Of a stretch of DNA of 64,000 nt, positions 9,500 through 58,342 are shown piece by piece. Both the position numbers and the translations under genes were made by a program. Source of the DNA: Escherichia phage vB_EcoM_011D4; sequence record MT478991.1; one strand, given 5' to 3'. Each line of letters opens with the position of its first letter. The first letter of the stretch is position 1. The notes beneath the pieces were generated by a model that saw nothing but the letters and a program-made list of their open reading frames with translations, did not search any database and was not told the DNA's origin.

Positions 9500-10258
9500 T
9501 TACTTGCAAACGTATTGATCTACATCAATTGCGCCACCGAATGTAGGATGACGTTTTTCAAATCGAATAGTTCCGTCGTTTGGTTCGAAAACGGAGTATT
9601 CATATAGATCTTTCTTGCCAACATTCTTATAAAACCCGCCTTTAGTCATAACGGTTTCTTGTACGTTTGCTTTGTGTACGTTGTATTCATCAATGTATAC
9701 AAAATCAACCATCTTCCCATTTTTAATGGTTACTTTAAGATCTCCTGGTTGATTTCCATATTTGGCATACAGTGGCGCTTCTTTAATTTTTGTGGAAATT
9801 CCATCTTTCATACTCCACTCATAACGAACGGTGCATTGATAGGTAAAAGTTTCGACCTTCGGTTCTTCCACCACTTTTTCTTCCTGTTTCGGTTGTTCTT
9901 CGTCAACCTTCACAGAAGTCTCTGAATCGCTTTCTGACGCGGTTTCTTCTTTAGGTAATACATTCATCAAGTTTTGGATTTGAGCGTTGTATACAGCCTC
10001 CAGTGGCTGAATCTGCCCGATATTGATCATTGTATCACGAATAGTTTTATTCCAGTTGCGTTGCTCTTGTTTAAGAGACGGATCAATCTTAACAGCCTTA
10101 ACATATACTTCATGAAGTTTCGAATCCAGCGCGGAGATAGACTCGTTAGCACAAATAAACTTCTCTGATTTGGTAGTCGCTTTAGCGCAATCAAAGGACG
10201 CAGCGTTAGCACCGAAAGCAGTAGCAGAAAGAACGATAGCAGCGATAATGTTTTTCAT
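9500..10258 (-). CDS. Secreted/periplasmic protein with LprI/DUF1311-like (lysozyme-inhibitor-like) N-terminal domain
   Basis: Signal peptide MKNIIAAIVLSATAFGANA; then FDCAKATTKSEKFICANESISALDSKLHEVY...QEQRNWNKTIRD matching the DUF1311/LprI pattern; strong early promoter immediately upstream. Confidence 0.55.
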   Translation of the reverse strand: MKNIIAAIVLSATAFGANAASFDCAKATTKSEKFICANESISALDSKLHEVYVKAVKIDPSLKQEQRNWNKTIRDTMINIGQIQPLEAVYNAQIQNLMNVLPKEETASESDSETSVKVDEEQPKQEEKVVEEPKVETFTYQCTVRYEWSMKDGISTKIKEAPLYAKYGNQPGDLKVTIKNGKMVDFVYIDEYNVHKANVQETVMTKGGFYKNVGKKDLYEYSVFEPNDGTIRFEKRHPTFGGAIDVDQYVCK

Positions 10259-10291
10259 AATATATTCCTCAATGTTTTTCTTGATGGGAGT

Positions 10292-10320
10292 ATCTTACTA
10301 CTCCCTTAATCCGGTGTCAA
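10292..10320 (-). promoter_or_regulatory. Sigma70-like early promoter (TTGACA-N17-TAAGAT)
   Basis: - strand reads aaaaagtagTTGACAccggattaagggagtagTAAGATactccc; -10 sits inside the palindrome GGGAGTA..TACTCCC; AT-rich UP region. Confidence 0.6.
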
Positions 10321-10327
10321 CTACTTT

Positions 10328-10540
10328 TTAATTTTTACCCGCTCGTGCATTAATACGCATTTTCTGCATAGCCATGATCTGGTTTACTGCTTCTTCTTTA
10401 CGTTCTTGCGTGATAACGTGACCAGATTCCGCAAACTCTCCAGAGACCTCTTCCACGATCTCGCGAACTTGAGAACGTCCAAAGATGCGGTTTCCTTCGT
10501 AGCTCATAAACTCTGTTACTACTTGCTCGATAGATTTCAT
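10328..10540 (-). CDS. Hypothetical protein (70 aa)
   Basis: ORF flanked by early promoters on both sides. Confidence 0.45.
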   Translation of the reverse strand: MKSIEQVVTEFMSYEGNRIFGRSQVREIVEEVSGEFAESGHVITQERKEEAVNQIMAMQKMRINARAGKN

Positions 10541-10569
10541 GTGATTCTCCTTTCGTTTGGTATGGGAGT

Positions 10570-10598
10570 ATCTTACTACTCCCGTTTCTTTACGTCAA
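10570..10598 (-). promoter_or_regulatory. Sigma70-like early promoter (TTGACG-N17-TAAGAT)
   Basis: - strand TTGACGtaaagaaacgggagtagTAAGATactccc; same GGGAGTAgTAAGATACTCCC core as at 10292. Confidence 0.6.
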
Positions 10599-10605
10599 CT
10601 GGTTT

Positions 10606-10848
10606 TTAGAAATTTTTCGCTTCTTCTTCGGTCATCATAACCGCGCATTCGTGCATAACTTTGAAAACCGGATCAATCATGTCGAATGCTTCGCGAGACA
10701 GTTTACGAGAAGCGATTTTGATTGCTTCAACGTCTTCTACTACAGGAACAAAAACAGTTTTCAGTTCATCGAGCACGGCAGCTTCTTTTTCATTCAGGAA
10801 GATTCCAGCGTCGTACAGTGCAACTTCGATAACATTAACTTTAACCAT
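10606..10848 (-). CDS. Hypothetical protein (80 aa)
   Basis: Track start (10911) lies upstream of the predicted transcription start; ATG at 10848 has a GGAGGAAATAAAA RBS. Confidence 0.45.
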   Translation of the reverse strand: MVKVNVIEVALYDAGIFLNEKEAAVLDELKTVFVPVVEDVEAIKIASRKLSREAFDMIDPVFKVMHECAVMMTEEEAKNF

Positions 10849-10882
10849 TTTTATTTCCTCCAGTTCGTTTCGGTATGGGAGT

Positions 10883-10911
10883 ATAATACTACCGATGACC
10901 TTTGGCGTCAA
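10883..10911 (-). promoter_or_regulatory. Sigma70-like early promoter (TTGACG-N17-TATTAT)
   Basis: - strand TTGACGccaaaggtcatcggtagTATTATactccc; overlaps the 3' end of the upstream ORF. Confidence 0.5.
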
Positions 10912-11122
10912 CTGCTTTTTTATTATTTTCGTGAAAATTTTTCGTTGCCTCTAGGTTCTTTTCGACCTTCATCCATTCCGCGTATTCTTGCGCGGCTACT
11001 TTCGGATTTAGTCCGTCTTCGTACATTGCATCGAGTAATTCTTCGTCGGTGGGCTTATACCCTAGATAAGCCTCCACCTGATTTTTCCAAATTTTATACC
11101 AGTTCATATTATCACCAATCAA
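10889..11122 (-). CDS. Hypothetical protein (about 72-77 aa)
   Basis: - strand ORF; start uncertain (ORF-track start or ATG at 11107, MNWYKIW...). Confidence 0.4.
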   Translation of the reverse strand: MIGDNMNWYKIWKNQVEAYLGYKPTDEELLDAMYEDGLNPKVAAQEYAEWMKVEKNLEATKNFHENNKKAVDAKGHR

Positions 11123-11384
11123 GAGCGCGTGTCTCTGCGTCTTCCCATGCTTGATCCATTACAGCCTTAAAAACATACTCTAGAGTATCATCTTTAGAGA
11201 ATCCGAAGACTTTAGACGGAATATCTTCGATTGCTACTCCCGCAACTTCTGCATTACGCGCTTGGCAATAATGCAACTCTAAGTTATCGAGATAGCGACC
11301 GCCTAATTTCTCCATATCATCCCAGCATTTCCAGTAACCTACTTTATCTGCAATTGCTAACACTTTGCTGTTTTTGTTGCTCAT
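11112..11384 (-). CDS. Hypothetical protein (90 aa)
   Basis: Track start lies upstream of the promoter; ATG at 11384 (MSNKNSKVLAIAD...) has the AAGGAGAATCAAAG leader. Confidence 0.45.
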   Translation of the reverse strand: MSNKNSKVLAIADKVGYWKCWDDMEKLGGRYLDNLELHYCQARNAEVAGVAIEDIPSKVFGFSKDDTLEYVFKAVMDQAWEDAETRALDW

Positions 11385-11415
11385 CTTTGATTCTCCTTTT
11401 GTTTGGGATGGGTGT

Positions 11416-11444
11416 ATTATGCAATGATGGATTTGTGAAGTCAA
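11416..11444 (-). promoter_or_regulatory. Sigma70-like early promoter (TTGACT-N17-CATAAT)
   Basis: - strand TTGACTtcacaaatccatcattgCATAATacacccatc; the -10/+1 context recurs at 62006 and 63249. Confidence 0.5.
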
Positions 11445-11449
11445 CAACT

Positions 11450-11484
11450 TTTTAAAATAAAAAGCCGACCACAAGGATCGGCTT
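11450..11484 (-). terminator. Rho-independent terminator
   Basis: - strand AAGCCGATCCTTGTGGTCGGCTTTTTATTTT just after the stop at 11494; nearly the same hairpin as the + strand terminator at 1561. Confidence 0.6.
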
Positions 11485-11493
11485 AATAATCAG

Positions 11494-11889
11494 TTACTTA
11501 CTAAATTTCTTTTTGGCTTCGTCTACTGCATGAGATGCCAGTACCGCTGCCGCATGTGCACTTTTATCTGTGTTGCAGAGAACACCCAGATAAACATCAC
11601 GCCAAAGTTTAATCATCTCGTAGATCATATCAATATCATTTTCTTGTTTGTTGGCGATGCTATTCGTTGTTATCTGGTAAGGTAACGGCTTAATCTGTAC
11701 TGGTTCCGCCATCGGGCTAATCGGTTTCGGATCAGTCATAATAGGTGCTGTTGTGTGTGGTGTTTTCCATACGCCATTATTCCACGGTTTAATCGTTGTA
11801 TCGTAAAGTTTATAAGGATTTTTGTCTGGGTCAACCATCCATGCATGATGAGTACCCAAACCATTTGAAGTGATGCGTCGTTCAGTCAT
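11494..11889 (-). CDS. Hypothetical protein (131 aa)
   Basis: - strand ORF followed by a terminator. Confidence 0.45.
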   Translation of the reverse strand: MTERRITSNGLGTHHAWMVDPDKNPYKLYDTTIKPWNNGVWKTPHTTAPIMTDPKPISPMAEPVQIKPLPYQITTNSIANKQENDIDMIYEMIKLWRDVYLGVLCNTDKSAHAAAVLASHAVDEAKKKFSK

Positions 11890-11892
11890 AAT

Positions 11893-12096
11893 TTATTTCC
11901 TCTCTGATAATTCTTTCATCAAGCTGTCGATCTTTGCTCTGTGTTCTGGCGTGTTTGTCATCTCTGCTAATTTGCTCAGAGATTCACTGGTGATCCGGTT
12001 GGATTCTTCCAGTGTTTCAACGACAATTGGCACAATCTTTTTATTGTTGTACAGAAATGCAATATAACCGCCTTCTGGATATTCTTTCATAATCAA
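11893..12096 (-). CDS. Hypothetical protein (67 aa)
   Basis: Small ORF whose stop lies 3 nt after the gp52 stop-start overlap. Confidence 0.4.
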   Translation of the reverse strand: MIMKEYPEGGYIAFLYNNKKIVPIVVETLEESNRITSESLSKLAEMTNTPEHRAKIDSLMKELSERK

Positions 12097-13454
12097 CCCT
12101 TCTTAAGTTCTTTAAGATCTTTCTTATATTCCTTCATTGCGGTCGTCTTTGTCCAATACTCATATTCACTATGATGTTTATCGGCATCTTTGACCAGTCG
12201 ATCATACTCTTCTTGAGTAACGCTATACAATGGCATAGAAACGAGTTTATCGGCGTATGGACGCAGTTTTTCATGTCCATTGATAGATTGCATTACCTCG
12301 GCCTTTTTCTTGCCCTGTAGCTCGATTTCGCCCTTAATTACAAGGTCGATAAATTCGGCTTTAGCCATTGCATAATTGTATGCTTCCAGCGTTTCCGCTT
12401 GCATCAATTCAATGCGTTTATCGACATACCCTAATCGGATTTCGACGAATCGACGGATCAGATCGCTCGCTTTCTCGAATACTTCAACTAAGCCACGTTC
12501 ATTAACTACCACGATATTCTGGGCTACTAACTGCGTTAGTTTAAAATCCTTCATGATTTGCTCATGTCGAGCGTATTCATCTTCGCTTTTGAAATAATCG
12601 CGTTTCAGTGTTACTTCAAATCTGAATCCGTCCTTAGAGCAACGGTCATTATACGATACAATCAGATCTTTTTCTTCCAGCGCATCCAGTACCGCTACAT
12701 ATTCTTCACGGTCGAACTTATAAGGAACTTCTGATATTGTCAGTTTAGTCTTGCCGTTTAGTTCATATGTACCCTCAAGAATCACACCATCGCGATCATC
12801 TCGCGGGATAACTTTACCCGTGAATTTTGGGAATTGAACACTAGGTTCTTTATCCAGTTTTCCGGCAAGTGCTAGCTCTGTGCATTCAATGAGGCTTTCC
12901 AGTGAATGCGGTAAAATGTCGGTTTTATACCCTGTAGCAATACCACTAATACCATTTGCCAATACCATTGGCACAACTGGCAAGTAGAACGCTGGCGGGA
13001 TGTGTTCCAGGTCTTCGTGCTTAGGTGCGCAATTCATATCTTTATAGATTTTAAAGAAGTTTTCATGCACACGAGCAAAAATATAACGTGCTGCACCTGC
13101 TTTCTGGACTAAACGCGATCCGAAGTTACCTTGACCGTCAAGCAGTGGAGTATTATTGCTCCATGTATTCGCCATGAGTGATCCGGCTTCTACGGCATTA
13201 GTTTCCCCGTGGTGATACCCCAACTCAGCGACACCAGATCCAATATCTGCCATCTTACGGAATTTCTTACGGTCGCCTTTACTCTTTTGCAAAGCACATT
13301 CCATAACAAAGCGTTGCACTGGTTTAAGACCATCAACTAATTGAGGAATCCCGCGTTCCTCGGCAGAATAGATCGCATATTCCTTAGCTTCATTATGTAC
13401 AATGCTTTCAAGGCTGCGGTAAGTAACTGATTTATTCATCTTCACCTCATACAC
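12093..13454 (-). CDS. 52: DNA topoisomerase II medium subunit (gp52, GyrA-like)
   Basis: 453 aa; DGLKPVQRF motif typical of GyrA/topo II breakage-reunion domain; LGYHHGE; position next to the rIIB/rIIA/39 block as in T4. Confidence 0.9.
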   Translation of the reverse strand: MYEVKMNKSVTYRSLESIVHNEAKEYAIYSAEERGIPQLVDGLKPVQRFVMECALQKSKGDRKKFRKMADIGSGVAELGYHHGETNAVEAGSLMANTWSNNTPLLDGQGNFGSRLVQKAGAARYIFARVHENFFKIYKDMNCAPKHEDLEHIPPAFYLPVVPMVLANGISGIATGYKTDILPHSLESLIECTELALAGKLDKEPSVQFPKFTGKVIPRDDRDGVILEGTYELNGKTKLTISEVPYKFDREEYVAVLDALEEKDLIVSYNDRCSKDGFRFEVTLKRDYFKSEDEYARHEQIMKDFKLTQLVAQNIVVVNERGLVEVFEKASDLIRRFVEIRLGYVDKRIELMQAETLEAYNYAMAKAEFIDLVIKGEIELQGKKKAEVMQSINGHEKLRPYADKLVSMPLYSVTQEEYDRLVKDADKHHSEYEYWTKTTAMKEYKKDLKELKKG

Positions 13455-18894: not shown

Positions 18895-20718
18895 TTATGA
18901 TTGCATCCAAATTTTGCGCTGATCTGCATCTTCACTATAGAGCAAATCGAATAGCTCTTTATAGTTTTCCGGCAACGTGATGATTTCCATTACAGGATCG
19001 TTGATCACGCGATGATAATCTGATTCTGTAAGCGATGCTAACCCTTTGATATATCGAATGCTATAACCTTTGATATTATCTCGGTCGTTCTCAAAATCTT
19101 CTAGGTCATAATACCATCGAACATCATTACCTTTCTTTTGTTCCGCAATGATAATAGGTGTTTTGATAAACCGGATTCGTCCATCTTCGAACAATTCAGG
19201 CCAACGAGCAAAGAAAGAAATCAGACTAGGTTTAATAGACCCGATCCCGTCAGTATCAGCGTCTGTCATAATCGCAATATTTTTGTATTGCATAACTTCC
19301 AGCGCATCAACACCAAATTGCAAACCAGTGATCGCCATGATGTTAAAAATTTCGGCGTTCTTAACGATCTTTGCCTCTGGTTGTTCCCACGTTGTAAGAG
19401 TTTTACCTCGCAACGGGAAACCGCCATGTAAATCTTGATCACGTACAGAGATCAGATAGTTGATCGCGGAATCACCTTCCGTCAAAAACAGGGTAGTTTC
19501 TGCGTCAGTTCCAATAAGGTTAGCTTTAACGTGTTTTGCTACCTTAGCCCGTTTTGCTGCCTTTGCTGCCTTAGTCGCTGCCGCTTTATCTGCTGCCTCT
19601 TTGCGTGCCAGGACTACAGCAATAATAGGCATGATAATGTTTTCTTTCTTCGCAATGACTTTAGCCAGCTTTTTAAAATCAAGATCAATATGACGCTTGA
19701 TATCACCAGTTGGATTAGTCAATCGTTCTTTTGTCTGTGAATCAAAACGGAGGTTTGGCAATTCACGAACAATAAGAATACAGGTCAATCCAGACTTAAC
19801 CGCAGCTTTAGTAACATCAACCTTATATTCTTTCTTGATTCGTTTTACAATCTCTTCACAAAGATCATCTGTCACGTAGTCTACGTGTGTTCCCCCGTTT
19901 TTGGTAAACAGACCATTAGCAAATGATACTGATTTAAAACCTTCACCTTCAACCGCAGGAACTAGGGCAAGTGAAAAGTTTTTATCTTCAATGACAAACG
20001 GATCATCATTGTATAGTTTAGCATAATCCTTGAACTTACTAACAATACGTTTACCATTAAACTTAAACGTGATCTTAGGAAATATTACGCTCAATGATTG
20101 CAGACGATCATGAACAATATCTAAAACAGAGTTGTCCATCATATAACCTTCGAAGTGGTCGAAGTCTGGGCAAAATGTAACCTTTGTTCCCTTCAATTTT
20201 GATGGTTTCGATGACCATGTGATATTTTCAGCACCGTTTGTACATTGAACGGTCATTTCTGTTTCGCCGTCACAGGTCACACCAGTAAACCAATCGCTAA
20301 AGAAATTTGACAACGACGACCCCACACCGTTCATCCCTTGCGTTAGTCGATTTGTATCATCAAAGTTAGACCCTGCTTTTGTTCGTGTCCATGCGGCTAC
20401 AGGTTGCGGAATCTGCGTGCCCTCTGGGGTAGTAACCATATGTTGAGGAATACCGCGACCATTGTCTGTTACCGTAACAATATTGTTTTGGATATCGACG
20501 CTAATCACATTGGCAAATTCAAAGTTAGTGCGGATCGCCTCGTCTACAGAGTTGTCGATGATCTCATCAATGATTTTAACCAGTCCTGGAACATATGAAA
20601 TTTTTGTCCATTTACCGAACAGGAAACGTTGATGTTCTTCGTAAGTTGTTGATCCTATATACATTCCTGCACGCTTAAGGACATGTTCACGATCAGATAA
20701 AATGCGAAACTCACTCAT
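18895..20718 (-). CDS. 39: DNA topoisomerase II large subunit (gp39, GyrB-like), unsplit
   Basis: 607 aa; GyrB/ATPase motifs (RAGMYIGS, DNGRGIP, VDYV...); single continuous ORF with no gene-60 split. Confidence 0.9.
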   Translation of the reverse strand: MSEFRILSDREHVLKRAGMYIGSTTYEEHQRFLFGKWTKISYVPGLVKIIDEIIDNSVDEAIRTNFEFANVISVDIQNNIVTVTDNGRGIPQHMVTTPEGTQIPQPVAAWTRTKAGSNFDDTNRLTQGMNGVGSSLSNFFSDWFTGVTCDGETEMTVQCTNGAENITWSSKPSKLKGTKVTFCPDFDHFEGYMMDNSVLDIVHDRLQSLSVIFPKITFKFNGKRIVSKFKDYAKLYNDDPFVIEDKNFSLALVPAVEGEGFKSVSFANGLFTKNGGTHVDYVTDDLCEEIVKRIKKEYKVDVTKAAVKSGLTCILIVRELPNLRFDSQTKERLTNPTGDIKRHIDLDFKKLAKVIAKKENIIMPIIAVVLARKEAADKAAATKAAKAAKRAKVAKHVKANLIGTDAETTLFLTEGDSAINYLISVRDQDLHGGFPLRGKTLTTWEQPEAKIVKNAEIFNIMAITGLQFGVDALEVMQYKNIAIMTDADTDGIGSIKPSLISFFARWPELFEDGRIRFIKTPIIIAEQKKGNDVRWYYDLEDFENDRDNIKGYSIRYIKGLASLTESDYHRVINDPVMEIITLPENYKELFDLLYSEDADQRKIWMQS

Positions 20719-24785: not shown

Positions 24786-25289
24786 TTAAATTAAAGAAAA
24801 TTTGTAAATCTCTATCAGATCGCCATTACACGCGTAAACTTCCTCGATCTCGTCAAGGATCATGGTCGTCCCTGTCTTGTATATGCACTCGCGCTCATCT
24901 GCCAACATAGCATACAAAGACAGTCGAGTAGTCGGATTGTCATACTCTTTAGACACCACTCGGTCAATAGCATGTTCGTAATAATTCATGCAAGGCTTGG
25001 TAGGTTTTATTGCAATAATCTTTCCTGTTGCATAAACATCGGTTGCAAAGTCCTCTGCTGTTGATTGCAGTGGCGTAAAGCTCATAGGACGCTCTACAAC
25101 GAAAGAATCACCCACAATTAAGGTATCCAGCTTACGGCCTTCTCTTTTGCTCACACCGCGATACAAGGCTTCATGATGCACTAACCGCTCAGTCTTTTCG
25201 ATCAATCCATTAAGGGTCGACATATCGATATTTTCTTTGGAGTTCATAACTTCATCAATGATGTTAAGTTCTTCTGGTGTAAATTGCAT
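24786..25289 (-). CDS. Putative ADP-ribosyltransferase (ModA/ModB-like)
   Basis: 167 aa with an ordered R...S-x-T...E-x-E pattern (LYRGV, SFT, ERE) as in R-S-E ADP-ribosyltransferases; sits in the T4 modA/modB position. Confidence 0.4.
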   Translation of the reverse strand: MQFTPEELNIIDEVMNSKENIDMSTLNGLIEKTERLVHHEALYRGVSKREGRKLDTLIVGDSFVVERPMSFTPLQSTAEDFATDVYATGKIIAIKPTKPCMNYYEHAIDRVVSKEYDNPTTRLSLYAMLADERECIYKTGTTMILDEIEEVYACNGDLIEIYKFSLI

Positions 25290-25322
25290 AATAAAAAAGC
25301 CTCCAATCTTTCGACGGGAGGC

Positions 25323-25351
25323 ATAATAAAACCATTATAGAGTAGTGTCAA
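25323..25351 (-). promoter_or_regulatory. Sigma70-like early promoter (TTGACA-N17-TATTAT)
   Basis: - strand TTGACActactctataatggtttTATTATgcctccc directly after the gp56 stop. Confidence 0.5.
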
Positions 25352-31644: not shown

Positions 31645-31672
31645 ATTATACACACTTTATCTTAAATGTCAA
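31645..31672 (-). promoter_or_regulatory. Sigma70-like early promoter (TTGACA-N16-TATAAT) overlapping the gp43 3' end
   Basis: - strand TTGACAtttaagataaagtgtgTATAAT; a GGCGGGT...ACCCGCC inverted repeat follows in the leader. Confidence 0.55.
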
Positions 31673-34340
31673 ACAGGTCCGTAAGCGATGCCACTTTTTC
31701 ATATTGCAGCTTTGCAGCCGTGGTAATATTCTCCAGTGGTTTAACGAAAGTCTTATTAAACAACAAAGGCCAGTCTAACCACTTTAACACCTCGCTTTCA
31801 ATTTCTGGTGGAATACGAGTACCAGACAACCAACCAAAACAGATTTCTCCAAACGGATTTCGATCTTTGAGCGGTACGATCATAACTTTCTCGCCCTCAC
31901 GAATCGGATCTAGTCCAAATTTTCGAGCATTACGATTATAACACAATACGCTCTTAACCGCATACGGACAACCCTTAATCGGATACCCGTTTGAATCGCT
32001 GTATTTCTGTAGGTTGTTTGCAGATGACACCGCAGCAACCTCAAGATAGTCAAGTTTTCTAAATTCTTGCTCAAAAATACCGTAGTATTCCTGCAATGAC
32101 TCTTCACCTTCCTGCAACATACGACGAATACATTCTTTCAGTGATTTCTGACATGCTTTAGGCGTAGAGCTACGTTGCGTTTCCAAGCCCATGATTTTTA
32201 GCTTAGGTTCAGCAAAGCGCGTTCCTTCCATATCCCAAACATTAAGAGCATAACGCTTTTTACCAGTCCAGAATCCACCGATACCCGCAGATTTCAACGG
32301 AGGACCAGCAATTGCTTCACGGTCCATAAACATCAAGTGCTCATAGTTGTTCATGTACTCGCACAACTCTCGATATCCTTTGTCGATAATCGGTTCCATT
32401 CGATGTTTACCGAAATTATCAAGGAAGTCAACAAGTTTTTCGGTATCGTCGAAACGATCTTCCCCGCCAACCTTATCAACAACATTGTTAACCAGCACAT
32501 AAACGGAGTCAGTATCACAATAACGAACATATGCAAAATCAGTTGTTCCGCAAAGCTCGTTTAAGTATTCGTTAATCTTACGCTCAATCCACTGAATTGC
32601 AAGCTGACCAAACAGTGTGATCGCACTAGCGTTACGGAGATCATAAAAGCGGAATTTAGGATTCCCCAACGCACCATAAAGGGAGTTGATCAAAACTTTA
32701 CGAGAAAGCTGGTTTGTATTGCACAAGATCGACTCGTCTTTACATTCTTCCAGCAATTTTTCTAGGGTATCTTTGCTTAATTCCAAAAGCATAGATTTAA
32801 ACGCTTCATCGAAGTCATGACGCACTTCAACGCTATAGCTAATGGTTCCCCCATAAACATGATTTTCATCGTGTAGAATCGCTTTACATAGTTCAGCATT
32901 GCGATCACATGCCAACATCATGTTTTTGTACTGCTTACGCTGATCGAATACCTTTTTAATCTCAATCGGTACGATACCATGAATATCTTTTCTATACATC
33001 CATCCGTTAGGCGAGCAAGAATACTCATCACTCGGACGTGGTGCAGTTTTATTGATATACTCGTGCATCGGTGCAGCATCAAAAGATCCAGCGATAGTTT
33101 CGGGTGAAATATTTACCTGCCTAATTATTGAAGGATACAAACTCGTGAGATCGAAGCTCATCATCCAACGGTAAGCATTCGGCACAGGTTCTTTTACAAA
33201 TGCGCCTGGATACGTCTGCTTAGGCTGTATCTTATTTTCCGGTACTACTTTACCCTCTGCTTTCAGAGATCCGAAGATAATAGCATCCCATACTTTCATC
33301 GGATTATAAACATGGTTAAATTTAATCTTTGCATAGAAACATAGGCTATACACCAGATCAATAAAACCACGCTTTTTATCAATCGCCAGCACACGGTCAA
33401 CGTCGCCGATGTTATAATCGATGTAAAGTTGATGGTTGTCATCACGCAATTTCTTTAATGGACCATCATAATCAACCTTACCGATTCCTGTCTCATATTC
33501 AGCAACATAATCTAATGCATATGTTGGTTGAGTCGTAAAGCTAAATTTCTTGTACAGGTCAATATAATCAAGGCTTTCGATCCCCATGATCGTAAATGCT
33601 TCACGCTCGTTGCCAAAATCATCCTGTGAGATTCGGGATTTAATCTTACCGCACGGGCTTAATCGGTTTGCCGTTCGACTTCCAAACTTATTACTGATAC
33701 GCTTAATGATATATGGAATATCGAATGTTTCTGTGTTCCAGCCAGTGAAGCCAACTGGTCGGTTTTCCTCAAAGAATCGGATGTATTCTAATAGCAATTC
33801 ATCTTCTGTATCATAGACGTTATAAACAACGCGCTCTACAATATCAGGTCGAAGAATAGATTTGCTTGCTTCCCAGATTTCACCGTTCTTTCCTTTCAAA
33901 TCAAATACAAAGAAACGATCATGTACGGAATCATAATGCGTAATTGCATCGATAGGATATTTCGCTTCTTCTGGTTTAGGAAATTCTGGGGCAGTGACCT
34001 CAATATCAACCCACGCTACACGGATTTTATTTCGGTCATATCGAATCTCGCCTTTATATGTATCGGACAGATAGGAGATGATAAAATCATCCATCCCTAG
34101 TGCCTCTTGCCCCATTTCCCCCATCTTTTTACGCCATTTGTTGGCCTCGTTCATAGATGGGAATTTTTTAGCAATGCAAGGCTTGCCATAGATATCTTTA
34201 TAATTCGTAACCATACCAGGCGCGGCATGATGAAATAAAGTTGGCGTATATTCAACGTAACGCTCTTGTTCTTGTCCAGCATCATCAATATAACGCTCGT
34301 AGATCTTATCACCTACTCGCTCACATGACAGAAAATACAT
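31662..34340 (-). CDS. 43: DNA polymerase (gp43, family B)
   Basis: About 892 aa; long blocks match T4 gp43 as recalled (FPSMNEANKWRKKM, YPIDAITHYDSV, MSFDLTSLYPSIIRQVNISPETI, DEYSCSPNGWMY, INSLYGALGN, YCDTDSVYV, GKKRYALNV). Start at ATG 34340 with AAGGAG RBS. Confidence 0.95.
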   Translation of the reverse strand: MYFLSCERVGDKIYERYIDDAGQEQERYVEYTPTLFHHAAPGMVTNYKDIYGKPCIAKKFPSMNEANKWRKKMGEMGQEALGMDDFIISYLSDTYKGEIRYDRNKIRVAWVDIEVTAPEFPKPEEAKYPIDAITHYDSVHDRFFVFDLKGKNGEIWEASKSILRPDIVERVVYNVYDTEDELLLEYIRFFEENRPVGFTGWNTETFDIPYIIKRISNKFGSRTANRLSPCGKIKSRISQDDFGNEREAFTIMGIESLDYIDLYKKFSFTTQPTYALDYVAEYETGIGKVDYDGPLKKLRDDNHQLYIDYNIGDVDRVLAIDKKRGFIDLVYSLCFYAKIKFNHVYNPMKVWDAIIFGSLKAEGKVVPENKIQPKQTYPGAFVKEPVPNAYRWMMSFDLTSLYPSIIRQVNISPETIAGSFDAAPMHEYINKTAPRPSDEYSCSPNGWMYRKDIHGIVPIEIKKVFDQRKQYKNMMLACDRNAELCKAILHDENHVYGGTISYSVEVRHDFDEAFKSMLLELSKDTLEKLLEECKDESILCNTNQLSRKVLINSLYGALGNPKFRFYDLRNASAITLFGQLAIQWIERKINEYLNELCGTTDFAYVRYCDTDSVYVLVNNVVDKVGGEDRFDDTEKLVDFLDNFGKHRMEPIIDKGYRELCEYMNNYEHLMFMDREAIAGPPLKSAGIGGFWTGKKRYALNVWDMEGTRFAEPKLKIMGLETQRSSTPKACQKSLKECIRRMLQEGEESLQEYYGIFEQEFRKLDYLEVAAVSSANNLQKYSDSNGYPIKGCPYAVKSVLCYNRNARKFGLDPIREGEKVMIVPLKDRNPFGEICFGWLSGTRIPPEIESEVLKWLDWPLLFNKTFVKPLENITTAAKLQYEKVASLTDLFDI

Positions 34341-34372
34341 AATATAAACTCCTTCACTTACGAAAGACACTC

Positions 34373-41187: not shown

Positions 41188-41216
41188 AGTATAACGGGGA
41201 TTTCTCCCCGCGTCAA
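41188..41216 (-). promoter_or_regulatory. Sigma70-like early promoter (TTGACG-N17-TATACT) with spacer palindrome
   Basis: - strand TTGACGcggggagaaatccccgtTATACT directly after the gp47 stop; spacer holds CGGGGA-GAAA-TCCCCG. Confidence 0.55.
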
Positions 41217-48615: not shown

Positions 48616-48644
48616 AGTATAGGGGATCTCGCGATCCCCGTCAA
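48616..48644 (-). promoter_or_regulatory. Sigma70-like early promoter (TTGACG-N17-TATACT) with spacer palindrome
   Basis: - strand TTGACGgggatcgcgagatccccTATACT; spacer is the palindrome GGGGATC-TCGC-GATCCCC. Confidence 0.55.
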
Positions 48645-51743: not shown

Positions 51744-52238
51744 TTATTTTACCAATTCTGCTAATTCTTTTTCTTTAGCTTCTAGTTCAGCTTTAAGCTG
51801 TTTAATCTCTTGTCGCTTCTTATTAGCGGCTTCCTGCTTACTATTTCGGATAACCTGATCTAGATACAATTCCCAATCCTGAATATTTTTGATAATGTAG
51901 CCGTCAACATTAATTGGTCGGAGATTCAGTACAGCTTCCAGTTTAGTTGCAAAAACTTTAATTGCTGGGGTGAAGTATTCATATTCGTTATCTTCAAACC
52001 AATAACCTAGACTTGCATTCTCAATACGAAGATGAAGTTTAAGATCAAGGTCTTTATCATCGGTATATAGGTCTTTTACACACCCCATAGAATTAACCAC
52101 AACTTTAAAACGAATTTTATCTACACCACCAAAAACATCTTCAAGAATATCAGCAATTGAGCTATTAGCGCAAGATTGGTCGCTGAATGCGTCAAGGTTT
52201 TCTTTAGTTACAGTATACCAAACATCTTGTACCCACAT
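51744..52238 (-). CDS. Hypothetical protein (164 aa), C-terminal coiled coil
   Basis: ORF with a K/E-rich C-terminal coiled coil. Confidence 0.45.
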   Translation of the reverse strand: MWVQDVWYTVTKENLDAFSDQSCANSSIADILEDVFGGVDKIRFKVVVNSMGCVKDLYTDDKDLDLKLHLRIENASLGYWFEDNEYEYFTPAIKVFATKLEAVLNLRPINVDGYIIKNIQDWELYLDQVIRNSKQEAANKKRQEIKQLKAELEAKEKELAELVK

Positions 52239-52268
52239 AATATAATCCTCTCGTTGTTAAGTGGGAGT

Positions 52269-52296
52269 ATTATAGCATACTCCCTTCGCATGTCAA
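52269..52296 (-). promoter_or_regulatory. Sigma70-like early promoter (TTGACA-N16-TATAAT) inside GGGAGTA..TACTCCC palindrome
   Basis: - strand TTGACAtgcgaagggagtatgcTATAATactccc. Confidence 0.6.
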
Positions 52297-53471
52297 GCAC
52301 TAACTTTTTTCTTTACTGCTTTCACCTTCTGGCGAATTGCTCGAATCTCTTCGATCTCTTTTTCAGTCTCTTTAACAATTTCTTTGCGATTCTGAATATC
52401 TGTATCTAGATTATCATCAAGTTTAGGCAGCATGTCAATCAAGAACTTTTTAAAGTCTTTCAGGTTTCGGATAACAGCACCTTCACCCATTACCGCCACG
52501 CCTACACCATCCGGCAGGTCGCCAAACAGTTTAACCAGTTCAGACAGATGATCATGATCTTCTAGTGCTTCTTCCGGTTCAGATGGCAGTCCAACAAAGT
52601 AATAACGTTCATCATTGCTGATCAGGTGATACCAGCAAAGCCCAAAAGATTTAGGAGTATATTCTACACCACCAACTTCAACTGCGTCAACACTTCCGAA
52701 AGAATCTACTTTAGTTACCTTAAATCCATGTTCCAGCGTTTTAATAATTTCAATAACATGACTAGATACGGTTTCAGTATTAAACCAATGAGGCAAATTA
52801 TGTGGATTTGGCTTGTATCGTTCGCCTACTTTAAATCTCTGACCACGCTCTTGCATACGGACATATTCAACTCGCGTGATTTCCGCGAAGTATTCAAATT
52901 CGCTACCGTCAAACAAGCAATTCCATTGATCACAAAAACGATCCGCCTTGACGGTTTCACCTTTCGCGGTGATCATGGTAGCCGATCCATGAAATTCTTC
53001 TTCAACCAAAAAGCCATATTCGACAAAATCAACAAGTTTCATGGCTTCTTTATGCTCTGGGTCATGCTCTCCCCAGAATCGCTTAAATTCTTGCAAACCT
53101 TCTGGGGTAAACGAATAACATTTACCTTTTTCAAAGTAAGTCGGCATTGCATCCTCTTTCTTGTTCATCGCTTCGTATGCCTCTTTTGAGATACGTTTAA
53201 AGTATTTGCGCTCATTGTGCATAATCATAGTAGACCAATAATAAACGATATCCTCAGCGGAATAAACTACATCTCCAGCTTCAATAGTAATAACATGACC
53301 GTGGTCATCTTTTTCTAATACTTTAAAGCCCTTTTCTACGATTTCAGCAACCCGAATATGACCACGGCGCGAAGCATCGGTCAGAATAATTGAATAGCGA
53401 GAAAAGTCTAGAAACTCATCTTTACCACCTTCACGGAATGCATAGTAATGACCTTCAAAGAATTTAGCCAT
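52293..53471 (-). CDS. Hypothetical protein; module family (3 tandem modules)
   Basis: Three internal repeats each with G(H/K)(Y/C)Y.F...GFKV(L/T)...G.V...(I/V)E.G...ER(K/Y)YF; acidic/coiled-coil tail. Confidence 0.5.
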   Translation of the reverse strand: MAKFFEGHYYAFREGGKDEFLDFSRYSIILTDASRRGHIRVAEIVEKGFKVLEKDDHGHVITIEAGDVVYSAEDIVYYWSTMIMHNERKYFKRISKEAYEAMNKKEDAMPTYFEKGKCYSFTPEGLQEFKRFWGEHDPEHKEAMKLVDFVEYGFLVEEEFHGSATMITAKGETVKADRFCDQWNCLFDGSEFEYFAEITRVEYVRMQERGQRFKVGERYKPNPHNLPHWFNTETVSSHVIEIIKTLEHGFKVTKVDSFGSVDAVEVGGVEYTPKSFGLCWYHLISNDERYYFVGLPSEPEEALEDHDHLSELVKLFGDLPDGVGVAVMGEGAVIRNLKDFKKFLIDMLPKLDDNLDTDIQNRKEIVKETEKEIEEIRAIRQKVKAVKKKVSA

Positions 53472-53502
53472 AATATAATCCTCTCGTTGTTTAGATGGGA
53501 GT

Positions 53503-53531
53503 ATCTTACTACTCCCGTTTCATCATGTCAA
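53503..53531 (-). promoter_or_regulatory. Sigma70-like early promoter (TTGACA-N17-TAAGAT) inside GGGAGTA..TACTCCC palindrome
   Basis: - strand TTGACAtgatgaaacgggagtagTAAGATactccc; core identical to promoters at 10292 and 10570. Confidence 0.6.
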
Positions 53532-54112
53532 GCGTTAAATGACTTTTGGATCTCTTTCAGTTCAGCTACTTTATCTGCGCTATATTTTGCTTGATGTTCC
53601 ATGCGCTTAATCTCACCTTTGATATAGGTTTCTAGCTTAGGTTTATTCTCAATCAAAAAATCTTTCAGGTCATCGGCATTTTTAAAGTATAGCTGATTAT
53701 CAACGCTAAAATCTTCCAGCGTCAATGATACCAAAGAAGACTTCGCAAACAAGTTAATCAGATCTTCCAGCGATTCTTCTTTCTTAACTGGCTTCATTTC
53801 TTCAAACTGCTTTTTAGTGATACGCTTAAAGTATTTGCGCTCGCTGGCATCAATCATGATTGATGCGCCCTCATAATCATGAGTTTCTACCAAATACACT
53901 TTACCCATAACATTAACAGTCAGAACTTTAAAGCCCTTGTGAAGCACACCATACAGGAACTTGTTATGTTGTGGATAGCGTTTAACAAATTCCTCTGCGG
54001 ACTCAGCATTACGGAAAGTGTAATAACGACCTCGTTCAAAAACAGCATCATTTGAAGACTTAGCCGGATACAATTTATACGTTTTCTGTACCATAATATA
54101 ATCCTCTATCAT
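53528..54112 (-). CDS. Hypothetical protein; module family (1 module)
   Basis: RGRYYTFRNAESAEEF...GFKVLTVNVMGKVYLVE...ASERKYFKRI. Confidence 0.5.
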   Translation of the reverse strand: MIEDYIMVQKTYKLYPAKSSNDAVFERGRYYTFRNAESAEEFVKRYPQHNKFLYGVLHKGFKVLTVNVMGKVYLVETHDYEGASIMIDASERKYFKRITKKQFEEMKPVKKEESLEDLINLFAKSSLVSLTLEDFSVDNQLYFKNADDLKDFLIENKPKLETYIKGEIKRMEHQAKYSADKVAELKEIQKSFNA

Positions 54113-54381
54113 TTCACTAATTGAACAGCACGGAACAGAATGCGCTCACACGGAAGCAGCATAAATTCCCAACGCGGATCAAAGTCTTTAGCGGTATACG
54201 TTTTCCCATCAACCGAGATTTCACTTACATAACCAACAGGTGACACTTTAAGAACAGTAAACCCATTCTTGATGACTTCGTAGGTATCTTTCACCCCTTC
54301 GTATTCATCATCTAAGAAGTCTTTATGTGCTTGCTCAGATTTAAAAACATAGGCCACACCGGATTTAAACATCTTACGCAT
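54109..54381 (-). CDS. Hypothetical protein; module family (1 module)
   Basis: ATG at 54381 with AAGGAGAATCAACA leader; SGVAYVFKSEQAHKDF...GFTVLKV...VSEISVDGKTY. Confidence 0.45.
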   Translation of the reverse strand: MRKMFKSGVAYVFKSEQAHKDFLDDEYEGVKDTYEVIKNGFTVLKVSPVGYVSEISVDGKTYTAKDFDPRWEFMLLPCERILFRAVQLVK

Positions 54382-54412
54382 TGTTGATTCTCCTTCTTGA
54401 TTAGATGGGAGT

Positions 54413-54441
54413 ATTTTACTACTCCCATTTCTTATTGTCAA
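54413..54441 (-). promoter_or_regulatory. Sigma70-like early promoter (TTGACA-N17-TAAAAT) inside GGGAGTA..TACTCCC palindrome
   Basis: - strand TTGACAataagaaatgggagtagTAAAATactccc directly after the gp49 stop. Confidence 0.6.
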
Positions 54442-54444
54442 CTA

Positions 54445-54933
54445 CTATCTTAATCTTTGTATAAATTGTTTCTTATACTTCTTCGTGATCTCTTCTCTTG
54501 TATCAGCGTCACAATAATCGAAGCCTTCTGCGTCCATAATAGCAACCATCTCCGCGCGTGTCAAGCGTGAAAATCGTTTTACTTTATCAACAGCATATTG
54601 AGGATGTAAATGATTGTTGGTGTAGTCTCCTTTGATGTAATTAACATAGTTTGTCGCCCAAACAACGAAATCAGCACCTAAAGCACCAACACCAAACCGT
54701 TTAAAGTCTCCGGTCAACGATCCTTCTAGGCGGTTGCAACACGAATGAAGCAATCCCCTTACGCGGCCTTGCCCTTTACCATCTAGATCGTGGTCGTGGT
54801 CAAGATGGTTTTTGCTCATATCCTCAAAAAGTGGCAATTGACAAAGGGGGCAAATGCCCCCCTGTTTTTCGAATAGTTCTTGTTTGTACTCTTTAGCACT
54901 CTTAGCAGTCAGTAACATAAATTCACCCTCCAA
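54445..54933 (-). CDS. 49: Endonuclease VII (gp49, Holliday junction resolvase)
   Basis: 162 aa; N-terminus MLLTAKSAKEYKQELFEKQGGICPLCQ...HLDHDHDL...GRVRGLL matches T4 endo VII as recalled. Confidence 0.85.
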   Translation of the reverse strand: MEGEFMLLTAKSAKEYKQELFEKQGGICPLCQLPLFEDMSKNHLDHDHDLDGKGQGRVRGLLHSCCNRLEGSLTGDFKRFGVGALGADFVVWATNYVNYIKGDYTNNHLHPQYAVDKVKRFSRLTRAEMVAIMDAEGFDYCDADTREEITKKYKKQFIQRLR

Positions 54934-56994: not shown

Positions 56995-57280
56995 GATTTA
57001 CCCCCAATTCATCAAGATTGTGTCGCAGCATTTCAGAGTATTTTTCTACTTCCTTAATCTTAGTGTGGATCTCCACGATCTCATCTTCACTATCAGAAAG
57101 TTTAATGGCAATAGCGGTACTGCTTTTACCCGCTTTCATAGTCTCTTTCAGTTCAACCAACAGGTCCGCGTGTTTCAGTAGCAGTTCTTCACGTCGAACA
57201 TAAGCGACGGTCAAAGCCTCATCAGCGATTTCTAAAGCATTTTCAGCGACACCAACAACCATTTTACGAGTAGACAGCAT
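56987..57280 (-). CDS. Hypothetical protein (97 aa)
   Basis: Compact - strand ORF; coiled-coil-like. Confidence 0.4.
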   Translation of the reverse strand: MLSTRKMVVGVAENALEIADEALTVAYVRREELLLKHADLLVELKETMKAGKSSTAIAIKLSDSEDEIVEIHTKIKEVEKYSEMLRHNLDELGVNHG

Positions 57281-57603: not shown

Positions 57604-57637
57604 AATATATTCCTCACATCGTTCATTTGATGCGGCT

Positions 57638-57666
57638 ATTATAGGATAACCGCATTTTCATGTCAA
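57638..57666 (-). promoter_or_regulatory. Sigma70-like early promoter (TTGACA-N17-TATAAT) with -10 inside an inverted repeat
   Basis: - strand TTGACAtgaaaatgcggttatccTATAATagccgc; GCGGTTA..TAGCCGC flanks the -10. Confidence 0.6.
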
Positions 57667-58313: not shown

Positions 58314-58342
58314 AGTATAGGGGATACGCGATCCCCTGTCAA
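58314..58342 (-). promoter_or_regulatory. Sigma70-like early promoter (TTGACA-N17-TATACT) with spacer palindrome
   Basis: - strand TTGACAggggatcgcgtatccccTATACT; spacer palindrome GGGGAT-CGCGT-ATCCCC as at 48616. Confidence 0.55.

Follow-up and report, generated by a model that had tools for sequence, protein, structure and literature searches.

Several early promoters of the Escherichia phage vB_EcoM_011D4 carry their -10 hexamer inside a nearly identical palindrome, which raises the question of whether the repeated unit is a reusable promoter cassette and whether its palindrome acts as an operator for a regulatory protein or as a stem-loop in RNA. The stretch of DNA analyzed here (the window) comprises 64,000 nt of this phage (MT478991.1), and the sites are read on its minus strand. 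The original prediction of at least five minus-strand promoters sharing TTGAC(A/G)-N16/17 and a -10 inside GGGAGTA...TACTCCC was confirmed at all five sites by reading the sequence, each site having the form TTGAC(A/G)-N16/17-TA(A/T)NAT with the -10 hexamer within the inverted repeat, and the coordinates 10292 (copy 1), 10570 (copy 2), 52269, 53503, and 54413 are correct as the low-coordinate ends of the -10 hexamers. A pattern search of the window locates the exact 20-mer GGGAGTAGTAAGATACTCCC (minus strand) three times, at 10286-10305, 10564-10583, and 53497-53516, together with a one-mismatch copy at 54407-54426 (loop GTAAAA) and a variant at 52263-52284, GGGAGTAT-GCTATA-ATACTCCC, which contains the consensus TATAAT. 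The distance between TTGAC(A/G) and TANNNT is 17 nt in four copies and 16 nt at 52269. The palindrome has a 6-nt loop (GTAAGA), and the hexamer TAAGAT is made up of the last five loop bases and the first base (T) of the 3' arm. With up to three mismatches allowed, the palindrome pattern has five matches in the window against 0.96 expected, and the -35/N18/TAAGAT pattern has 11 against 1.7 expected, a number equaled in none of 100 shuffles; chance therefore does not explain the motif. A three-mismatch palindrome match at 57034 was dismissed as probably due to chance, since it lies inside a gene and lacks a -35, and promoter-like matches inside genes (e.g., 6119 and 18374) were dismissed for want of the cassette context.

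Each copy takes up the whole of an intergenic gap of 55-70 nt. From 5' to 3', the gap holds the upstream stop codon, in or beside an AT-rich stretch, then the -35 and the spacer, the loop with the -10, and the 3' arm, and the start codon ATG comes after a leader and a Shine-Dalgarno sequence. The 3' half of the 16-17-nt spacer is the 5' arm GGGAGTA, and the 3' arm TACTCCC doubles as the C-rich discriminator and start region. Downstream of the -10, all five copies continue with ACTCCCA, the Shine-Dalgarno sequence, and ATG, with GGAG or GAGG located 5-9 nt before the ATG in 5/5 copies. At copies 10292, 10570, and 54413, 3-9 nt separate the upstream stop codon from the -35; at copies 52269 and 53503, the stop codon is the TGA of the -35 itself. 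On the minus strand, copy 1 reads TAA-AAAGTAG-TTGACA-CCGGATTAA-GGGAGTA-GTAAGA-TACTCCC-ATCAAG...GAGGAATATATT-ATG and copy 2 reads TAA-AAACCAG-TTGACG-TAAAGAAAC-GGGAGTA-GTAAGA-TACTCCC-ATACCAAACGAAAGGAGAATCAC-ATG; the two are 278 bp apart and have a 22-bp exact direct repeat in common.

The genes behind the copies differ in kind. Copy 1 is placed to drive a 252-aa LprI-domain ORF (9500-10258), and copy 2 is placed to drive a 70-aa ORFan (10328-10540, minus strand; phrog_14966), a homologue of RB49 ORF262c that is bracketed by copies 1 and 2 in the layout known as "PeSL + ORFan." The 252-aa protein corresponds to RB49 ORF260c, annotated there as hypothetical; its match to the Pfam LprI (lysozyme inhibitor) domain has E = 4e-5, just above cutoff, and by eye its N-terminal hydrophobic stretch resembles a putative signal peptide. 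Copy 53503 is placed to drive a 392-aa frd.2/goF-like gene, copy 54413 lies directly after gene 49 (endonuclease VII) and is placed to drive a homologue of RB49 ORF060c, and the gene upstream of copy 52269 is goF-like, its stop codon being the TGA in that -35. Four consecutive genes at 51744-54381 (164, 392, 194, and 90 aa) have overlapping PHROG matches to goF/frd.2-like "mRNA metabolism modulator" families, and they look like a tandem paralogue array, three of whose members stand directly behind a GGGAGTA-type promoter. Because three copies precede goF-like paralogues, part of the repetition is a matter of tandem gene duplication rather than cassette mobility, and copies 52269, 53503, and 54413 have probably spread together with their own genes in this way. 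The goF-like genes at 52293-53471 and 53528-54112 end at the TGA in the next TTGACA (52291-52296 and 53526-53531, respectively), with zero spacer between gene end and promoter and the hairpin beginning ~12 nt past the stop. Farther along, the reading frame of ORF 10889-11122 includes the -35 and the spacer of a degenerate copy of the element and stops at the TAG in its decayed 5' arm (CGGTAG); the RB49 homologue of this ORF ends upstream of the -35. ORFans without a Pfam match also occur in the locus adjoining gene 52 (topoisomerase), to which phi1 ORFan263.1 maps, and from ~7.2 kb to the window end nearly all genes, gene 52 and gene 49 included, are on the minus strand.

Megablast searches with 9500-11500 and 52100-54600 matched about 58 phage records at 91-99% identity, and all matched records with a genus assignment belong to Krischvirus (RB49-like T4-type coliphages), among them RB49, phi1, JSE, GEC-3S, ECD7, KFS-EC, and phiS. 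The window is a mosaic relative to its sequenced relatives, phiS being 99% identical at 9.5-11.5 kb and only 96% at 52-54.6 kb, where the closest relative is ELT3 (97.9%). Positions 9500-12100 correspond to RB49 ORF260c-266c and phi1 ORF262-268, and the same cassettes precede ORF260c and ORF262c in RB49 and ORF262 and ORF264 in phi1. In the available part of the list of RB49 early promoters predicted in 2006, the RB49 orthologues of copies 1 and 2 (158711-158746 and 159218-159253) fall inside Pe:158760 (score 38.9) and Pe:159267 (score 36.3), respectively, both of which are among its high scorers (Nolan et al., 2006, Additional file 3, PMC1524935). The RB49 early consensus is described as consistent with the 5' ends previously mapped for early transcripts; it includes a G at -33 (TTGAC), and its favored base from -3 to -1 is C, which the ACTCCCA of the window copies matches; the words stem-loop, hairpin, and palindrome are absent from the main text on these promoters (Nolan et al., 2006, PMC1524935). 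The same positions are annotated as promoter, -10, and -35 in the GEC-3S record (copies 1, 2, 52269, and 54413). A scan of IMG/VR with a pattern of 19 specified bases returned three contigs only, the loci on all three of which carry the same cassettes as the Krischvirus genomes, and the exact pattern was not found elsewhere in IMG/VR. Beyond the primer extensions that Desplats et al. reportedly performed on RB49 early promoters in 2002, a literature search found no mapping of transcript starts or 3' ends and no transcriptomics for any Krischvirus.

Promoter early stem-loops (PeSLs) were described in the coliphages RB49 and phi1 (Arbiol, Comeau, Kutateladze, Adamia & Krisch, 2010, PMC2839356; Comeau et al., 2014, PMC4122927) and are defined as early promoters that follow the sigma-70 consensus, are AT-rich on their upstream side, and include a stem-loop (Arbiol et al., 2010, PMC2839356). 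Each genome has about 52 PeSLs, most of them in front of ORFans in hyperplastic regions; they form five subclasses by stem position, and in the commonest the stem either lies between the two hexamers or overlaps the -10 (Arbiol et al., 2010, PMC2839356). The literature on sister PeSLs covers promoter activity, mini-circle formation, and the ability of one stem-loop, which is of another subclass, to act as a terminator; for example, PeSL206/205 is a strong promoter (about 13,000 Miller units), the stem-loop of PeSL211/210 was shown to terminate transcription, and most of the PeSL193/192 clones obtained had a mutated -35 or -10 (Arbiol et al., 2010, PMC2839356). The sequences of these experimentally handled PeSLs were taken directly from the RB49 record. 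There, the spacer of PeSL211/210, on which the terminator assay was done, contains the stem GGGGATC…GATCCCC, and PeSL206/205 is built in the same way. PeSL193/192, which served for promoter cloning and the mini-circle experiments, has the sequence AACGGGAGTGTCgctaaGATACTCCCA and the same GGGAGT…TAAGAT…ACTCCC core, its stem-loop AACGGGAGTGTC-gctaa-GATACTCCCA with the -10 TAAGAT belonging to the family of the window copies.

Every sequence-level feature of a PeSL is present at the window sites. Near-consensus sigma-70 hexamers (TTGACA/G-N17, or N16 at 52269, followed by TAAGAT/TAAAAT/TATAAT) are combined with a stable stem-loop, here overlapping the -10, and with a Shine-Dalgarno sequence and downstream start codon at the 3' end; the cassettes lie before ORFans in a hyperplastic region of a T4-type phage, and indel or replacement junctions between relatives fall at them. 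The likening of these reusable promoter cassettes to the PeSLs of RB49-type phages was thus well founded, as the window comes from such a phage and its sites are orthologous to RB49/phi1 promoters, and the suggested comparison with published PeSL sequences revealed the core shared with PeSL193/192. The window sites are very probably PeSLs of Krischvirus, of the subclass in which the stem-loop overlaps the -10 box. The promoter-inside-palindrome motif is an already known element class, and the finding itself is already known because the PeSL class was defined in this same phage group.

Further putative PeSLs, including members of the other subclasses, are distributed over the window (Table 1), and 9 of about 15 strong promoters in the window have a fold z-score of -2.8 or lower. 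The element at 57630..57666 keeps the architecture with an unrelated stem, so that it is the layout that is conserved and not the GGGAGTA sequence. The leader of the neighboring element at 11416..11484 resembles that of copy 2. The 902-aa ORF at 31662-34370 is taken, from its size and position alone, to be gene 43, a gene described as bordered by PeSLs (Arbiol et al., 2010, PMC2839356). Positions 25289-25351 hold a promoter-like TTGACA-N17-TATTAT followed by a terminator-like hairpin, GCCTCC…GGAGGC, and T6; its 3' arm is the Shine-Dalgarno sequence of ORF 24786-25289, and the hairpin may be a terminator that also sequesters the ribosome-binding site.

Table 1. Copies of the repeated promoter-palindrome and further putative PeSLs in the window.
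Feature	Position	Strand	Elements
PeSL copy 1	10285..10320	-	-35 TTGACA 10320-10315; 5' arm GGGAGTA 10305-10299; loop GTAAGA 10298-10293; -10 TAAGAT 10297-10292; 3' arm TACTCCC 10292-10286; inferred start near A10285
PeSL copy 2	10563..10598	-	-35 TTGACG 10598-10593; palindrome 10564-10583; -10 TAAGAT 10575-10570
Degenerate sixth copy	10876..10911	-	TTGACG-N17-TATTAT-ACTCCCA (CGGTAG-TATTAT-ACTCCCA); 5' arm decayed to GGTAGTA
PeSL copy, 16-nt spacer	52263..52296	-	-35 TTGACA 52296-52291; stem GGGAGTAT/ATACTCCC, loop GCTATA 52263-52284; -10 TATAAT 52274-52269
PeSL copy	53496..53531	-	-35 TTGACA 53531-53526; palindrome 53497-53516; -10 TAAGAT 53508-53503
PeSL copy	54405..54441	-	-35 TTGACA 54441-54436; 9-bp stem ATGGGAGTA/TACTCCCAT 54405-54428; -10 TAAAAT 54418-54413
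Neighboring PeSL, other subclass	11416..11484	-	terminator hairpin + T-run (11484-11462) upstream of TTGACT-N17-CATAAT (11444-11416)
PeSL, stem over -10, unrelated stem	57630..57666	-	ATGCGGTTAT-cctata-ATAGCCGCAT
PeSL, stem inside spacer	58314..58342	-	TTGACA-GGGGATcgcgtATCCCC-TATACT; core nearly identical to RB49 PeSL211/210
PeSLs similar to 58314..58342 (stem in spacer)	48616-48644, 41188-41216		
Stem over -10, unrelated sequence	57638 (in 57630..57666), 18864		
Stem over -35	34373		directly upstream of 902-aa ORF 31662-34370
Terminator upstream of -35	11484-11416 (the neighboring PeSL above), 60833, 49766		
Stem downstream of -10	36398, 31645, 15535		

Folded as RNA, the core hairpin has an energy of -10.4 to -11.8 kcal/mol (z = -3.7 to -5.1) and the 9-bp hairpin one of up to -13.8 kcal/mol, the 7-9-bp stems overall having z-scores of about -3 to -5, and on the sense strand 12-25 nt lie between the upstream stop codon and the hairpin. 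No U-tract follows the stem on this strand, where the continuation is AUCAAG, AUACCA, or AUCUAA, and the stem was rejected as a canonical intrinsic terminator because the sense-strand U-tract is missing. The terminator role, demonstrated only for the GGGGAT-type stem of PeSL211/210, may not transfer to the -10-overlapping subclass. A terminator scan flagged the copy-2 palindrome on the plus strand only (10562-10585), where it is followed by TTCTTTAC and is terminator-like; some copies could also stop antisense transcription. Rfam gave zero matches at the gathering threshold in the window, and in 10100-11000 the only match was spurious (E = 0.23).

Genomes of relatives break at these cassettes. 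At exactly 10599, where the copy 2 -35 has its 5' edge, homology to the window ends in RB49, phi1, JSE, and others, and these phages lack an extra cassette of the window at 10600-10955 (an ORF and the degenerate PeSL), the start of which coincides with a -35. An additional ORF261c and a GGGGATC-type PeSL are present in RB49, whose alignment pieces share 18 bp in the AT-rich/-35 part of copy 1, and kaaroe has a 303-bp insertion at 10336/10338. The junctions of RB49, phi1, and kaaroe lie at 10318-10338 and 10599. Similarly, KFS-EC (MH560358) is without RB49 ORF059c and ORF060c, and the missing 909 bp are the interval between copies 54413 and 53503, the left-hand and right-hand partners of the deletion, respectively. 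The single junction cassette of KFS-EC (1673-1737 of the locus compared with window 53496-54441) is a chimera with an ORF060c-type upstream part (TTGACAGCATGAAAT) and a frd.2-type downstream part (TAAGAT…AAACAACGAGAGG), which places the crossover within GGGAGTAGTAA, inside the palindrome. This junction is the excision product predicted by the PeSL model, and the junctions together are direct evidence that modular shuffling uses the cassettes as patches of homology.

The anatomy of the sites, their orthology to RB49/phi1 promoters, the constraint on the stem described below, and the junctions at the cassettes were all observed here, and the mechanism with the best support is that of the literature. 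Judging from the spacing, unmodified host RNA polymerase with sigma-70 would start early transcription about 7 nt past the -10, near A10285 and its equivalents, and with such a start the promoter's own transcript would be without the hairpin. Read-through transcripts from the upstream gene would carry the full 7-9-bp hairpin (-10 to -14 kcal/mol), which might attenuate them or mark their 3' end and so insulate each small gene. For the -10-overlapping subclass, we infer both the start site and this action of the hairpin as attenuator or 3'-end mark, since the stem in the published terminator assay was of the other type and no U-tract is present here. The repeated 20-70-bp cassettes would at the same time offer homology patches at which the phage recombination system could delete, insert, or swap the flanked ORFans. 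An unlikely though arguable variant is that the hairpin is no terminator at all, acting on the sense strand to mark the 3' end of the upstream message or protect it, or that the palindrome acts as DNA, as a preferred crossover point that a protein or structure-specific nuclease would recognize; if the latter were true, the promoters would be site-preferring recombination modules and not passive homology patches.

Substitutions in the arms bear on whether pairing or recognition of a sequence is under constraint. In four orthologous groups, the minimum number of changes per site is 0 in the 5' arm and the -35, 0.11 in the 3' arm, 0.25 in the loop, 0.36 in the adjacent spacer, and 0.4-0.7 in the flanks, one stem arm thus being under tighter constraint than either the spacer of the promoter or the interior of the -10. 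With one mismatch permitted in each arm, a search found the 5' arm GGGAGTA unchanged in 43/43 instances from 21 loci, though it lies in the promoter spacer, and the neighboring 9 spacer bases, the flanks, and the loop (GTAAGA, GTAAAA, GTAACA, GTATTA, or TTAACA) vary; a more permissive search added three RB49 paralogues with an altered 5' arm (GGGGGTA twice and TGGAGTA once). Among five variant arm sequences, three give a sense-strand G·U pair, namely TGCTCCC (phi1 and GEC-3S), TACTCTC (phi1), and GGGGGTA, and the two others, TACTACC and TGGAGTA, break a pair; a fourth change of the G·U type, ATGCTCCC, occurs in a 52269-type orthologue on a metagenomic contig. A covariation count over 25 distinct copies gives 91.6% paired cells and 2 double-changed pairs, values as high being reached in 15/500 shuffles, and according to the tool a score at this level can be reached by unconstrained alignments, the copies here being drawn from about 20 short loci. 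Covariation lends the hairpin real but modest support. In RB49 itself, the three consecutive promoters of the ORFans ORF225c-227c (AY343333 112000-135000, locus 19501-20007) have the arms GGGAGTA/TACTCCC, GGGGGTA/TACTCCC, and GGGGGTA/TACCCCC, and these stems are a compensatory series in one genome, from A-U through G·U to G-C.

The two functions that had been suggested for the palindrome, an operator or an RNA stem-loop, did not fare equally, in that the stem-loop is the published reading and fits the substitutions better and the operator is disfavored. That the palindrome serves as an operator in DNA or as a site of recombination, bound by a dimeric protein of phage or host (an early-promoter repressor or a recombination helper), with the RNA hairpin incidental, is doubtful enough to be considered quite unlikely. 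The exact conservation of GGGAGTA in all 43 instances is more than pairing alone demands, the site overlaps the -10 in the classic position of a repressor, the KFS-EC crossover falls inside the palindrome, and a DNA-binding protein was among the speculations of the PeSL authors. Against this, sister PeSLs in the same genome carry unrelated stems (ATGCGGTTAT, GGGGATC, and CGGGGA) at the same or other positions, the half-sites are unequally spaced (N6 in four copies and N8 at 52269), most one-arm changes still allow a sense-strand G·U pair, a compensated G-C pair occurs in one paralogue, and no candidate protein is known. A crossover in the longest block of identity is, moreover, what plain homologous recombination would lead one to expect. 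The pattern of substitutions taken alone would favor a hairpin over a sequence-specific operator only modestly.

The inverted repeat could also be a functionless passenger of the duplication of promoters with their genes, homogenized by gene conversion between copies, an explanation that we regard as very unlikely. It would account for the three copies that precede paralogous goF-like genes and for the leader and Shine-Dalgarno sequences that the copies also have in common, and because the 3' arm coincides with the C-rich discriminator of all RB49 early promoters, promoter function by itself accounts for one half of the palindrome. Conversion should, however, homogenize the loop and spacer as well, yet in the four orthologous groups both vary and the 5' arm is unchanged; in addition, copies 10292 and 10570 precede unrelated genes, one for a putatively secreted LprI-domain protein and the other an ORFan, and hairpins are general at strong promoters of the window, as the z-scores above indicate. 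It is hardly credible that the stem acts as DNA, through a supercoiling-extruded cruciform or hairpin that shows a single-stranded -10 to sigma-70 or through a cut by a structure-specific nuclease (e.g., endonuclease VII) that seeds PeSL-PeSL recombination, for although the -10 is located in the loop, the KFS-EC crossover lies within the palindrome, and stem-loops on single-stranded DNA are reported to have halted sequencing reactions (Arbiol et al., 2010, PMC2839356), the DNA hairpin is weak (-4.3 to -7 kcal/mol), 7 bp with a 6-nt loop is short for extrusion, and the substitutions favor pairing of the sense strand only, a G·U there being an A·C on the other strand.

PeSLs are the proposed linkers by which T4-type phages shuffle small accessory genes, and they explain why Krischvirus genomes differ mainly by indels of whole ORFans; recognizing them aids the annotation of early transcription units in these genomes, which are used in phage therapy. 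No new principle follows from the window, to which the KFS-EC deletion, as one clean natural example with its crossover inside the palindrome, and the substitution pattern add extra examples.

Like LexA- or lambda-type operators, the window copies have a 20-bp inverted repeat over the -10 and start region; unlike them, the arm spacing varies and the sister cassettes carry unrelated palindromes. Like intrinsic (Rho-independent) terminators, they have a GC-containing hairpin 12-25 nt after a stop codon, but the GGGAGTA family is without the sense-strand U-tract, a defining feature of such terminators, whereas canonical T-run terminators do occur among other PeSLs of the window (11462-11484, the 18864 region, and the 36398 region). 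The published terminator assay concerned the GGGGAT…ATCCCC spacer stem of PeSL211/210, and the window copies represent the -10-overlapping subclass, which has no U-tract. Set beside the PeSLs of RB49 and phi1, the window copies belong to the same genus, occupy orthologous loci, and have the same composite layout, the same hyperplastic setting before ORFans, and the same association with indels, and nothing essential differs.
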